Position numbers and translations under genes: made by a program. From UHGV virus genome UHGV-0048026: a DNA stretch of 44,553 bases. One strand, 5' to 3'. This document shows, piece by piece, positions 40,864 through 44,503 of the stretch (within the stretch, counting starts at the first letter, position 1; each line of letters begins with the position of its first letter). This DNA comes from a virus. A model generated the notes under the pieces. That model worked only from the letters and a program-made list of their open reading frames with translations, ran no database searches and was not told the origin of the DNA.

Positions 40864-41040
40864 ATATTAAGAAGAAAATAATTCTTCCAGTTTTTTACTA
40901 ACCGTTTGTATGAAAAGCAACCGTGAATTAAACAGAGTAAAACTGATTTTAATCCTTGCCACAGTACTGACACTAACTGAAATCATTATTCTCTTTATTG
41001 TGCTGTCAGTCGGTTAAAAATATCGGGATACCACAGACCA

Positions 41041-41229
41041 ATGAGACTGTATTTCACAATAGTAATTTTACTGGCAATTATCGCATGTATTTACGGATTA
41101 CTTGTTCCGTTCCTTATATCCATGAAGGATACGATAGCAGTTATTTCTGGCTTTGCACTGGCGTTTCTGACCCCGCCCTGCATTTATGCCATTTACAAGG
41201 GTCTTTCTTTCACTAAGGATAAAAGATGA
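41041..41229 (+). CDS. small two-TM membrane protein (62 aa)
   Basis: hydrophobic ORF (MRLYFTIVILLAIIACIYGLLVPFLISMKDTIAVISGFALAFL...), stop overlaps start of SPFH gene. Confidence 0.5.
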   Translation: MRLYFTIVILLAIIACIYGLLVPFLISMKDTIAVISGFALAFLTPPCIYAIYKGLSFTKDKR

Positions 41230-42053
41230 AAAAAATTATTTTTGCTTTAGCCATTGTTCTGCCGACTATTGGCCTTGTCGGTTGCGATCGCGTTGAACCA
41301 GGTAATGTTGGCATCAAGGTAAATAAACTGGGCGACGACAAAGGCGTCGGTGAGGTGGTCGGTGTTGGTCGCTACTGGACTGGCTGGAATACTGAAGTTT
41401 ACATCTTCCCCACCTTCAAGCAAATGAAGACCTACGATGAACCGTTCAGTTTCCAGATGAGTGACGGTACAACCATCGGCTATCACATTGGCGTGGCCTA
41501 CAAAGTTGATCCATCCAAAGTTACCACGGTGTTTCAGACCTACCGCAAAGGCGTGGATGACATTACCGACACTGACCTGCGCCAGAAGATCGCCGACGCA
41601 CTCAACCGACTGGCCAGCAAAATGACCACTGACAAATTTATCGACGGCGGCAAGTCTGAGCTGCTGGATGCAGCCCTTAAAGACATTCAGGCAGAAATGA
41701 CGCCCATCGGTATTCAGGTAATGAGTCTCTCATATGTGGGTAAGCCGGAGTACCCGCCAACCGTTATCGACAGCATTAATGCCAAAGTCACGGCAAACCA
41801 GAAGACCCTGCAACGCGAACAGGAAGTAAAACAGCGCGAAGCGGAAGCCAACATGTTGCGCGCGGAAGCTGCCGGACAGGCTGACGCCATTCGCACAAAA
41901 GCCCAGGCCGAAGCCGATGCTATTCGTTTACGCGGTGAAGCTCTGCGCCAGAACCCTGGTGTTATGGAACTGGAAGCCATTAATAAATGGAACGGCACAC
42001 TGCCGCAATACATGACCAGCGGTGCCAGTACACCATTTATCCAGGTTAAATAA
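41226..42053 (+). CDS. SPFH/band-7 (prohibitin-like) family lipoprotein
   Basis: 275 aa; lipoprotein signal with lipobox LVGC; C-terminal A/E/R/Q-rich coiled coil typical of SPFH proteins. Confidence 0.75.
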   Translation: MKKIIFALAIVLPTIGLVGCDRVEPGNVGIKVNKLGDDKGVGEVVGVGRYWTGWNTEVYIFPTFKQMKTYDEPFSFQMSDGTTIGYHIGVAYKVDPSKVTTVFQTYRKGVDDITDTDLRQKIADALNRLASKMTTDKFIDGGKSELLDAALKDIQAEMTPIGIQVMSLSYVGKPEYPPTVIDSINAKVTANQKTLQREQEVKQREAEANMLRAEAAGQADAIRTKAQAEADAIRLRGEALRQNPGVMELEAINKWNGTLPQYMTSGASTPFIQVK

Positions 42054-42093
42054 CTTATACGCCCGGCAGACCGCCGGGCTAAGGGAAAAGCAG

Positions 42094-42465
42094 ATGAACA
42101 CCCATAATGCCCAACCGCAAATAATGAACTATGACCCGAATCTGACGTCATGCGGACGTATGGCAAAACAAACCGTTCGATTAACTTTCGGGTTATGGGA
42201 ATACCGCGAAACATTCGAAGTTACTGTCGGCGGCAATCTGACCGGACTGGATGTTATCAGTTGCGCTATTGAAAGCCTGTACGCAACACTGCCTTATGAA
42301 GAAGTCGAGGATGAGCGCACAGGGGGAACAGATATCATGGCCACCATTAATATTGGCGAACTGATATGTCAGGATGAAGACCTGTCCGGAGAACTCTGGC
42401 TTGCCGGGATGCTTATCTCAGCAGAAATTATCAGTATTGAACCCGCTACAAACATACGGCTCTGA
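42094..42465 (+). CDS. hypothetical protein (123 aa)
   Basis: ATG 42094 with SD AAGGGA-like upstream. Confidence 0.5.
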   Translation: MNTHNAQPQIMNYDPNLTSCGRMAKQTVRLTFGLWEYRETFEVTVGGNLTGLDVISCAIESLYATLPYEEVEDERTGGTDIMATINIGELICQDEDLSGELWLAGMLISAEIISIEPATNIRL

Positions 42466-42496
42466 AGTTCTCACTATTCAGAGAGCAGGAGAAAAA

Positions 42497-42739
42497 ATGT
42501 TCGCTTTGATTAATCAGGGACAACTGTATACCGACAGTGCCGGTTACCCGGTAAAAATTATTCGCTGCATAAATAACACTGTGTTGTACAGAAGAATGGA
42601 TGGGCGAACACAGTCGGTAAAAATAAACGATTTTAATGAACTGTTTGAACGGCTCGATCACCAGAAATACCGACAAATTCTGGCAGAAACAGAACAGGAA
42701 ACTCATCTGAAAAAATTACGGGTCATGAAAAGGAAATAA
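42497..42739 (+). CDS. hypothetical protein (80 aa)
   Basis: ATG 42497 with SD AGGAG. Confidence 0.5.
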   Translation: MFALINQGQLYTDSAGYPVKIIRCINNTVLYRRMDGRTQSVKINDFNELFERLDHQKYRQILAETEQETHLKKLRVMKRK

Positions 42740-43189: not shown

Positions 43190-44503
43190 ATGGATAAAGT
43201 CAAATATCCAACAGGCGTCGAAAACCACGGTGGCACATTACGCATCTGGTTTAATTTTAAAGGTAAACGTGTCAGGGAAAATCTTGGTGTCCCTGACACT
43301 GCCAAGAACAGGAAGATCGCCGGAGAGCTGCGGACATCTGTATGTTTTGCTATTCGTACAGGAAACTTTGATTACGCTGCGCAGTTCCCTGACTCTCCTA
43401 ACCTCAAGGCTTTTGGGGTAAATAAAAAAGAAATTACGGTGAAGGAACTTGAAGAAAAGTGGCTGGATCTGAAACGAATGGAAATCTCTGCAAATGCATT
43501 CAATCGCTATGAATCCGTTGCAAGAACGATGGTTCCGAAAATTGGAGGCAGCAGACTGGTGTCATCGGTAACTAAAGAGGAATTGCTGTATATCAGGAAA
43601 GATTTGCTGACCGGGTATCAGAATTCAACGAAAAACAAAGCAGCAGCAAAAGGACGGAGCGTCGTTACTGTAAATTATTACATGACGACAATCGCTGGAA
43701 TGTTTCAGTTTGCTGCAGATCACGGTTACTTAGAAGCAAATCCCTTCCAGGGAATTAAGCCTCTTAAAAGAGCCAGGGCAGAGCCAGATCCGCTAACTCG
43801 TGACGAATTTATTCGCCTGATAGATGCTTGCCGACATCAGCAGACGAAAAACCTGTGGTCATTGGCTGTGTACACAGGAATGCGTCACGGTGAACTGGTC
43901 TCCCTGGCCTGGGAAGATATCGATCTGAAAGCAGGAACTATTACTATCAGGCGCAATTATACGAAACTCGGTGAGTTCACTCTACCTAAAACTGAAGCAA
44001 GTACAAACAGGGTTGTGCATCTTATCCAGCCTGCTATCAGTGTCCTGAAAAATCAGGCTGAAATGACAAGACTGGGTAAGCAGCACCACATCAAGGTTCA
44101 ACTACGTGAATATGGGCGTTCAGTGAATCATGAATGTACTTTCGTATTTAACCCCCAGGTGGTTAGAAAAAGCAAACAGGTCGGTTTTATCTACAAGGTA
44201 GATTCCATTGGCGACTCATGGGAAACAGCCATTAAGCGTGCGGGCATCAGGCACCGGAAAGCATACCAGTCACGACACACTTATGCGTGCTGGTCATTAT
44301 CTGCCGGAGCAAACCCAAGCTTCATTGCCAGCCAGATGGGCCATGCAAGTGCCCAGATGGTGTTCAATGTATACGGAGCATGGATGACTGACAGTAATGC
44401 AGAACAGATCGCAATGCTGAATCAGAAGCTGGCAGATTATGTCCCAATGATGTCCCATGGTCACCAAAGTGACACAAGAGACTTATTAAAATCAGTGGGT
44501 TAG
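43190..44503 (+). CDS. int: tyrosine site-specific integrase
   Basis: 437-aa ORF; C-terminal catalytic boxes (MRHGEL..., SRHTYACW, GHASAQMVFNVYGAW with Tyr). Confidence 0.9.
   Translation: MDKVKYPTGVENHGGTLRIWFNFKGKRVRENLGVPDTAKNRKIAGELRTSVCFAIRTGNFDYAAQFPDSPNLKAFGVNKKEITVKELEEKWLDLKRMEISANAFNRYESVARTMVPKIGGSRLVSSVTKEELLYIRKDLLTGYQNSTKNKAAAKGRSVVTVNYYMTTIAGMFQFAADHGYLEANPFQGIKPLKRARAEPDPLTRDEFIRLIDACRHQQTKNLWSLAVYTGMRHGELVSLAWEDIDLKAGTITIRRNYTKLGEFTLPKTEASTNRVVHLIQPAISVLKNQAEMTRLGKQHHIKVQLREYGRSVNHECTFVFNPQVVRKSKQVGFIYKVDSIGDSWETAIKRAGIRHRKAYQSRHTYACWSLSAGANPSFIASQMGHASAQMVFNVYGAWMTDSNAEQIAMLNQKLADYVPMMSHGHQSDTRDLLKSVG

Follow-up and report, generated by a model that had tools for sequence, protein, structure and literature searches.

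What does a phage do with a pair of overlapping genes encoding an SPFH/Band_7 lipoprotein and a small membrane protein? We addressed this question for the virus genome UHGV-0048026, analysed as a stretch of 44,553 nucleotides (hereafter the window), in which an ORF (open reading frame) at 41226..42053 (+) encodes the 275-aa SPFH protein and an ORF at 41041..41229 (+) directly in front of it encodes a 62-aa protein with two transmembrane (TM) segments. The original prediction for this locus had likened the two proteins to NfeD/SPFH or HflK/HflC membrane pairs of bacteria and had suggested that they tune the choice between lysis and lysogeny, through FtsH and CII, or act against other phages. 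We found that the SPFH/two-TM pair is not peculiar to lambdoid prophages: by sequence comparison it is an ancient and widespread module of virulent and temperate phages, equivalent to gp19-gp20 of phage N4.

Both ORFs were confirmed at the coordinates above, with an L-V-G-C lipobox in the SPFH protein and two hydrophobic segments in its neighbour. They overlap by the four nucleotides ATGA (41226-41229), of which 41227-41229 are the TGA stop codon of the small gene, and a Shine-Dalgarno sequence, AAGGA, can be read within the 3' end of the small gene (41215..41219, +), 6 nt 5' of the SPFH ATG. Because of this overlap and this internal ribosome binding site, the translational coupling which had been proposed for the two genes is plausible. 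The pair recurred in 536 of 5426 complete E. coli genomes (~10%), with 196 of the places being plasmid-borne, and a tblastn search of 50,697 phage records identified the SPFH gene in 414 of them. With this degree of recurrence, the gene pair is not a chance feature. When related loci were sought with the alignment of close relatives, all that came back were near-identical loci.

In the same tblastn search, the SPFH protein of the window was 70-81% identical to proteins of N4-like Klebsiella and Erwinia phages, 65-74% identical to proteins of jumbo phages and 62% identical to N4 gp20. Identity was 46-49% for rV5-like phages, ~37-45% for phages of Pseudomonas, Burkholderia, Stenotrophomonas and Erwinia (FelixO1-like), ~30% for crAss-like and Lak phages and 26% for phiCbK. 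The pair as a whole is conserved in the virulent N4, N4-like, rV5-like, FelixO1-like, jumbo, phiCbK and crAss-like phages, and the small protein could itself be found by tblastn in N4-like and rV5-like phages, adjoining the SPFH gene. In N4 the small protein is gp19 (68 aa, two TM segments), the gene of which overlaps that of gp20 by 8 nt and is located just 3' of the RNAPII genes. The overlap is ATGA in phage MY01, and in phage Ro1 one additional small gene lies between the pair. The genetic context differs in the crAss-like contigs (L102, L104-L109 and L113), where the pair lies between NAD-salvage genes, namely NAMPT and a ribose-phosphate pyrophosphokinase homologue, and genes for a glucosaminidase and a helicase, which is unlike the context in enterobacterial phages.

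We examined how regularly the two genes occur together in both directions. In 20 diverse phage loci we looked for an ORF of ≤ 130 aa with ≥ 2 TM segments which ended between − 40 and + 60 nt of the SPFH start. Such an ORF was found in 13 of the 20 loci, and inspection added QDWS595 and phiCbK (15/20); of 104 control ORFs (≥ 150 aa) from these loci, 4 had such a neighbour. The two clear exceptions, Skarpretter and HRTV-17, matched only weakly and in part, and their TM-anchored SPFH protein belongs to another subfamily. In the reciprocal direction, a profile search from the alignment of small proteins retrieved 100 protein clusters, none of which has a name or a Pfam domain; six of these, originating from crAss-like contigs and Enterobacter/Klebsiella prophages, were looked up, and in 11/11 complete places a Band_7 gene was the next gene downstream, with an overlap of 4-11 nt or a gap of 14 nt.

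The two proteins were also found as single polypeptides. At least 16 of the best 150 SPFH-family representatives carry an N-terminal extension of ≥ 55 aa, and at least 12 of these extensions consist of a two-TM hairpin which shows the small protein's loop motif; C-terminal to it come a third hydrophobic segment, the lipobox Cys and the SPFH domain. One such fusion is encoded by an E. coli P1-like contig (P0003). Taken together, the synteny, the fusions and the search in the reciprocal direction argue strongly for a joint function of the two proteins, and they also support a topology in which the ends of the hairpin would be cytoplasmic and the SPFH domain exported. We rejected the idea that the small protein substitutes for a missing TM anchor, as DSS3_MAL1, the SPFH protein of which has a TM-like anchor and no lipobox, still has the partner. 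Other hairpin-SPFH fusions are P0125, P0129, P0132, P0137, P0143-P0145, P0149, P0164, P0167, P0168, P0175, P0176 and P0200. The in-frame fusions carry the motif P-x-[LM]-[IV]-S and keep the internal lipobox, which prompts the question whether they are split into two parts by signal peptidase II.

Beyond the phiP27-like prophage of the window, the two-gene unit is present in P2-like and P1-like temperate phages. In the P2-like phage P88 the small two-TM protein is gp11 (67 aa), and its gene overlaps the SPFH start by ATGA; in the P1-like phage RCS47 it is an unannotated 78-aa ORF which overlaps the SPFH start by 20 nt. The small gene is unannotated in several phage records, including those of phiP27, RCS47 (L003 4731-4967) and Pokken (L009 1278-1490). 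Nucleotide homology of the window to P88 and to P1-like phages (RCS47 and others) is restricted to the part encoding the mature SPFH protein, at 86-91% identity. At the protein level, the mature SPFH proteins of the window and of the P2-like and P1-like phages are 96-97% identical, the signal peptides 40-42% and the small proteins 22-26%. Phages have therefore traded the SPFH core among themselves, with each lineage keeping its own small partner.

The assignment of the 275-aa protein to the SPFH/Band_7 family, as originally predicted, was borne out by profile and by structure. Pfam Band_7 (PF01145) matched residues 22-208 (E = 8.2e − 31, 107.8 bits against a cut-off of 23.6) and PHROG 200 (“lipoprotein”) matched with E = 3.2e − 114. 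The AlphaFold2 (AF2) model, based on 23 homologues, had a mean predicted local distance difference test score (pLDDT) of 76 and contained an alpha/beta domain with its strands within residues 20-175. When this model was compared to the PDB with Foldseek, the first full-length matches, all at probability 1.00, were HflC/HflK, prohibitin 1/2 and erlin 1/2 (E ~ 1e − 13); lower-ranked matches were stomatin, flotillin and QmcA, which face the cytoplasm, and the major vault protein. A profile of the SPFH family searched against solved relatives matched prohibitin 1/2 best (E = 1e − 10, over nearly the full length), followed by HflC, QmcA and HflK. In RefSeq the gene is already named “SPFH domain-containing protein”. 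The label “putative serine protease”, carried by L05 of phiP27 and by homologues in Stx2 phages, is a legacy misnomer, as there is no protease domain.

The predicted coiled coil rich in A/E/R/Q was also found in the model, as a long C-terminal helix of approximately 65 residues (residues 178-242; 41757..41951, +). This helix aligns with the coiled coils of HflK/C and prohibitin and is the counterpart of the coiled-coil wall of SPFH cages. It is followed by a motif, K-W-N-G-T-L-P (residues 254-260; 41985..42005, +), with the family form KWxGxLP; in an alignment of relatives which were 31-64% identical (A2), W255 and G257 were invariant and P260 was ≥ 90% conserved. Residues 245-275 had a pLDDT of < 50, so that the motif is disordered in the monomer model. 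A C-terminus which is conserved and yet disordered in a model of the monomer is compatible with a cap which becomes ordered upon assembly.

Orthology to HflK/HflC was rejected. The protein scored 24.7 bits against a cut-off of 134.4 for TIGR01932 (hflC) and 22.7 against 159.4 for TIGR01933 (hflK), both NCBIfam equivalogs. HflK/HflC systems have two paralogous TM-anchored SPFH subunits; here we found a single SPFH gene with a cleavable lipoprotein signal. This bears on the explanation which the original prediction put forward for the pair, that it is a phage copy of HflK/HflC which alters the FtsH-dependent turnover of CII, CIII or Xis and thereby sets the frequency of lysogeny or induction. 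HflK/C are indeed among the closest bacterial fold relatives, and they surround FtsH from that side of the membrane on which the SPFH protein would lie; moreover, the position of the gene within the leftward operon, after the repressor and ahead of xis/int, is that in which lambda carries the FtsH inhibitor cIII. However, the pair is likewise conserved among strictly virulent phages, which have no lysogeny decision to make, and this weakens a role in tuning CII as the general function of the module. The scores far below the HflK/HflC cut-offs and a partner which is not a second SPFH protein also argue against this explanation, as do the related prophages at the same chromosomal site which lack the pair or carry a frameshifted remnant. 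We consider the explanation very unlikely. A lysogeny-specific explanation is, from the phylogenetic spread of the pair, a misfit to the distribution of the module, and an effect on CII stability in temperate phages could at most be a by-product; by analogy with HflK/C, a broader modulation of FtsH by the pair is possible.

The literature which we found on SPFH proteins in connection with prophages, defence or N4 gp19/gp20 was limited to annotation-level remarks, with nothing on N4 gp19 or gp20 themselves; in agreement with the original prediction, we found no characterised function for the pair. The idea of an HflKC-like protein acting on CII has already been voiced for the Burkholderia phage CSP3 (PMC10269572) and for the Pseudomonas satellite AH14b (PMC4936722), and SPFH ORFs have been listed for T4-like phages (PMC1524935).

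The first 60 nucleotides of the SPFH gene (41226..41285, +) encode a lipoprotein signal peptide with the lipobox L-V-G-C, in which Cys20 is encoded at 41283-41285. The N-terminus (MKKIIFALAIVLPTIGLVGC/DRV) is a canonical lipoprotein signal, with the layout MKK-IIFALAIVLPTIG-LVGC-DRV, i.e. a basic n-region, a hydrophobic h-region and a lipobox which fits [LVI][ASTVI][GAS]C. The lipobox Cys was ≥ 90% conserved in alignment A2, and a strict lipobox regular expression matched 93 of 150 family representatives. The residue at + 2 is Asp21 in the window protein, and Asp was found at this position in 18/23 enterobacterial relatives; the exceptions had Glu (three relatives) or Tyr-Asp following the Cys (N4 and SonariX). 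Asp at + 2 is the classical signal for inner-membrane retention in Enterobacteriaceae. The SPFH protein would thus be exported, lipidated at Cys20 and retained in the inner membrane through Asp at + 2, and this combination of export, lipid anchor and retention would place the SPFH domain on the periplasmic face.

Family members without the Cys, which include variants on P1-like plasmids and a roseophage member, retain a hydrophobic N-terminal anchor, by which the hold on the inner membrane would persist; the roseophage also still has its small partner. In a common plasmid-borne variant, represented by the proteins P0110 and P0113 and encoded on P1-like plasmids of E. coli with a size of ~110 kb (up to 175 contigs), Tyr replaces the lipobox Cys (IIGYDRVEPG); this variant cannot be lipidated, and the uncleaved signal sequence probably serves as its anchor. 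The record of the SPFH homologue ENKO_388 of the Klebsiella jumbo phage fENko-Kae01 (L093 1498-2337) notes its identification by liquid chromatography-tandem mass spectrometry (LC-MS/MS), which may reflect presence in the virion preparation or co-purification of membrane.

A lipoprotein of this type might also be thought to act on the animal host, as a surface or vesicle lipoprotein acquired by lysogenic conversion. Asp at + 2 speaks instead for a protein which stays in the inner membrane, and animal virulence does not explain conservation in virulent and environmental phages such as those of Caulobacter and roseobacters or the crAss-like phages, so we regard this as highly improbable. The analogy behind it is that a prophage-encoded SPFH virulence factor is on record, namely the HflK/C-like PM0222 of Pasteurella multocida, which is reported to be released in vesicles and to trigger TLR1/2-dependent signalling (PMC9872710); in addition, the SPFH gene of the window is carried by Stx2-converting phages of Shiga toxin-producing E. 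coli (STEC).

The small inner-membrane hairpin protein (62 aa; 41041..41229, +) is the homologue of N4 gp19. It matched PHROG 1130 (“membrane protein”, E = 2.5e − 23) and no Pfam family, and its RefSeq entry is a hypothetical protein, WP_001242070.1. Its two hydrophobic segments (TM segments 1-29 and 32-48), with a five-residue loop, are followed by a basic C-terminal tail; an N-in/C-in topology is predicted. The motif PFLISMKDT (residues 23-31; 41107..41133, +) lies between TM1 and TM2 and corresponds to the family consensus LPxLISAxDT, for which a periplasmic location is predicted. In an alignment (A4) of 14 small proteins from phages of Proteobacteria and Bacteroidota, including crAss-like phages, P23 and S27 were ≥ 90% conserved. 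An NfeD identity was rejected: the window protein, N4 gp19 and a crAss-like homologue gave no Pfam hit, and 62 aa leave no room for an OB-fold. Of the resemblance to NfeD/SPFH or HflK/HflC pairs, the SPFH fold thus stands, but neither an NfeD identity of the partner nor HflK/HflC orthology of the SPFH protein does. A 35-aa single-TM ORF (MKSNRELNRVKLILILATVLTLTEIIILFIVLSVG; 40910..41017, +) lies in the 177-bp AT-rich spacer 5' of the small gene; no obvious Shine-Dalgarno sequence precedes it, and it may not be a real gene.

In its architecture the small protein resembles a class II holin, being ~60-80 aa long with two TM helices and a basic tail in the cytoplasm. This could suggest a role in the timing of lysis, in which the cage and the holin-like hairpin would protect the energised membrane or restrain a small membrane protein and so prolong productive infection. 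N4 lyses its host very late and with very large bursts, bacterial SPFH proteins cooperate with membrane-stress systems (YdjI with PspA in B. subtilis) and in crAss-like phages the pair is two genes from the glucosaminidase gene, all of which could be counted in favour of such a stabiliser. However, the pair is found in the early regions of N4, the window prophage, P88, RCS47 and rV5-like phages, away from the lysis genes seen there (in the window, N4, P88 and RCS47 no lysis genes lie close to the small gene), and no named holin or antiholin family in Pfam or PHROG was matched by the small protein. We therefore think that a function in stabilising the membrane before lysis is unlikely.

The behaviour of the pair as a cassette could alternatively point to superinfection exclusion or another defence at the level of the membrane, whereby the pair would alter the periplasmic face and block incoming phage DNA or pore-forming colicins. 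Analogues are T4 Imm/Sp, P22 SieA, HK97 gp15 and TP-J34 Ltp, and the T4 example shows that virulent phages also encode early exclusion genes. The 86-91% nucleotide identity confined to mature SPFH among unrelated temperate phages is the pattern of a mobile cassette, and in RCS47 the pair occupies a variable slot of P1-like phages between upl and ban, where P1 carries tciABC. In PHROG the small protein is filed under “moron, auxiliary metabolic gene and host takeover”. In N4 the gene directly 5' of gp19-gp20 is gp18 (L004 3407-3721), which matched PF17420 (“Superinfection exclusion gene product 17”, the family of P22 gene 17) with E = 1.5e − 56 and also PHROG 1510, and is thus a conflict-related gene beside the module.

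On the other hand, neither protein of the pair, nor any of three neighbours, matched a defence model of PADLOC-DB 2.0 at E ≤ 0.01, so that a known anti-phage defence system was rejected, and we found no paper linking SPFH proteins to phage defence. Rapid evolution and a narrow range of phages are usual for exclusion proteins, whereas the mature SPFH protein is 96-97% identical among three types of E. coli phages and 62-76% identical to its counterparts in virulent phages. The reach of the family into phages of Bacteroidota, together with this strong conservation, fits a conserved host target better, and no dedicated promoter for expression in the lysogen was evident. Exclusion is a serious alternative, which on balance we nevertheless consider to be unlikely.

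The setting of the pair in the prophage was as predicted. A 1.3-kb region containing it matches phiP27 at 97.4% identity, a series of Stx2-converting phages at 93% and, at 100%, the chromosome of E. coli SE11, in which the prophage adjoins yecE and yecN. On one strand, the SE11 prophage carries the Q antiterminator, replication genes and rha. On the opposite strand it carries genes for a cI-like repressor of the LexA family and an HTH protein, followed by three small ORFs, the pair itself (small gene first, then SPFH), DUF5406, DUF4222, xis and int. From this repressor as far as int, every gene has the same orientation; the pair lies between the repressor and xis/int in the early leftward region. 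In prophages of Klebsiella and Enterobacter the small gene directly adjoins the ORF ahead of it, and a promoter scan at the pair gave no signal beyond chance.

Directly 3' of the SPFH stop codon there is a GC-rich stem-loop (42061..42079, +; GCCCGGC-agacc-GCCGGGC) with a perfect 7-bp stem and a 5-nt loop, as had been described; the 60 nt 3' of the stop fold with − 20.1 kcal/mol (z = − 3.5 against shuffles). We rejected it as a canonical intrinsic terminator, since it is followed by TAAGGGAAAA, with no T-run or U-tract, and then by the ribosome binding site (RBS) and ATG (42094) of the DUF5406 gene, and a terminator scan of the window gave no call at this position. For the same reason, and because the scans did not rise above shuffled expectation, the pair is not a self-contained moron with its own promoter and terminator. 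A stem-loop is present at the same place in most other phage loci, and those of N4, MY01, Pokken, Panisse and fENko-Kae01 are canonical terminators with a T-run. The recurrence of this structure indicates that the pair often closes a transcription unit.

The 3' end of the integrase gene (window 43190..44503; SE11 locus L101 11291-13356) overlaps the start of the host DUF72 gene yecE by ~19 nt, and the attachment site of the prophage is therefore at the 5' end of yecE. In related prophages at the same site the pair is either absent or a frameshifted remnant, and it is thus dispensable for the prophage. Two sister prophages which lack the pair, in E. coli 95_0274 (L114 3142-3423) and AST85 (L115 3177-3686), have in its place a 93-aa ORF without a family match, or a 59-aa ORF followed by a frameshifted pseudogene; with alternative content of this kind, the location in the yecE slot was uninformative about function. 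A ParE-like toxin gene is located a few genes 5' of the pair or its remnant in Klebsiella, Enterobacter and E. coli prophages (L112 1376-1597; L115 2503-2721). The mechanically called DUF4222 ORF (42374..42739) overlaps the DUF5406 gene (42094..42465) by 92 nt; the RefSeq start of DUF4222 is equivalent to 42497 (42497..42739), with which the overlap disappears.

Our preferred reading, which we hold tentatively and at somewhat less than an even chance, is that the pair forms a prohibitin/HflKC-like cage with a membrane hairpin on the periplasmic face of the inner membrane and acts during lytic growth. The SPFH protein, anchored as described above, would probably assemble into a ring or cage which fences off a patch of inner membrane, by analogy with prohibitin, HflK/C and erlin. 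The co-translated 62-aa hairpin would span the membrane with both ends in the cytoplasm, leaving the LPxLISAxDT loop in the periplasm where it could contact the SPFH protein. The module would be expressed within the early leftward operon and would act on the host inner membrane in lytic development and not as a lysogeny-specific switch; a general role in lytic development is suggested by its presence in virulent phages as well and by its position in early operons. HflK/C, prohibitin and erlin all face away from the cytoplasm and work with membrane proteolysis or quality control, two of them with FtsH-type proteases. Because the top structural relatives work with such machines, FtsH and the turnover of membrane proteins are the most principled guess at a target, and by this analogy, which extends to every exoplasmic-facing SPFH complex with a known partner, the likeliest target would be an FtsH-type membrane protease or quality-control machinery, or else the integrity of the membrane itself. 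The more specific proposal, that this is a two-component viral system in which a lipid-anchored prohibitin-like cage and its hairpin capture or wall off an essential machine of the host inner membrane, with FtsH as the prime candidate, is possible, though we hold it to be doubtful.

It should be noted that several observations weigh against the cage reading. With the partner only 22-26% identical between the window and the P2-like and P1-like phages, any contact with the SPFH protein must be made through the short motif alone. The SPFH protein of the window is only ~17% identical to HflK/C, and the link to FtsH is an analogy. Glu or Tyr at + 2 in members from Klebsiella phages, rV5-like phages and N4 makes inner-membrane retention uncertain for some of the family. 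The sporadic, cassette-like distribution and the decay in some prophages would fit an accessory conflict gene equally well, and in the literature we found no experimental datum on any family member.

SPFH proteins such as prohibitin, stomatin, flotillin, HflK/C and erlin are universal membrane scaffolds, the cages of which have been solved recently and the mechanisms of which are debated. The SPFH annotation of this gene was already known; what is new is its dedicated and conserved partner, the occurrence of the two as a module of both virulent and temperate phages and their occasional fusion. The phage version is compact, consisting of a lipid anchor and a fixed partner of 60-80 aa, and is present in hundreds of phage genomes and in ~10% of complete E. 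coli genomes. As the module is short, self-contained and found in the tractable N4, P1-like and P2-like phages, its function is directly testable, and it opens the questions of what an exoplasmic SPFH cage contains, whether phages manipulate FtsH and whether the pair excludes other phages. If the FtsH-capturing proposal were true, the pair would be the first SPFH system of a virus for which a host target is defined, and would point to a general way in which phages control membrane proteolysis. For annotation, our results correct the “putative serine protease” label, the frequent omission of the small gene and an HflKC/CII-lysogeny explanation which misfits the virulent phages.

We compared the pair to known systems. 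T4 Imm/Sp and TP-J34 Ltp are small membrane proteins or lipoproteins expressed early or from the prophage, which act in exclusion at the outer face of the cytoplasmic membrane; they are not known to be related to the pair in sequence or fold and would resemble it in location only. The SPFH-NfeD operons (QmcA-YbbJ, YqiK-YqiJ and the archaeal stomatin-STOPP) likewise pair an SPFH protein with a small membrane protein, are co-transcribed and in some cases fused, but the partner in the window has no NfeD OB-fold, protease domain or Pfam hit, and QmcA faces the cytoplasm whereas the window protein is predicted to be exported. E. coli HflK/HflC, which act with FtsH, share the SPFH fold, the long coiled coil and the periplasmic side predicted for the SPFH domain, and were among the top structural matches; they differ in having an N-terminal TM helix and forming a heteromer of two paralogues, where the window has a lipid anchor and a single SPFH protein. 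Mitochondrial prohibitin 1/2 is the closest solved relative by profile and Foldseek, its SPFH domain faces away from the cytoplasm/matrix, and its ring partners with an FtsH-type AAA protease; in contrast to the phage pair it is a eukaryotic, TM-helix-anchored hetero-oligomer without a small hairpin partner. The closest known counterpart is N4 gp19-gp20. N4 is virulent, carries its pair 3' of the RNAPII genes and has Tyr-Asp after the Cys of gp20 where the window has Asp, but the proteins are direct homologues, with gp20 62% identical to the SPFH protein, the loop motif present in gp19, the two genes overlapping and a hairpin 3' of the SPFH gene.

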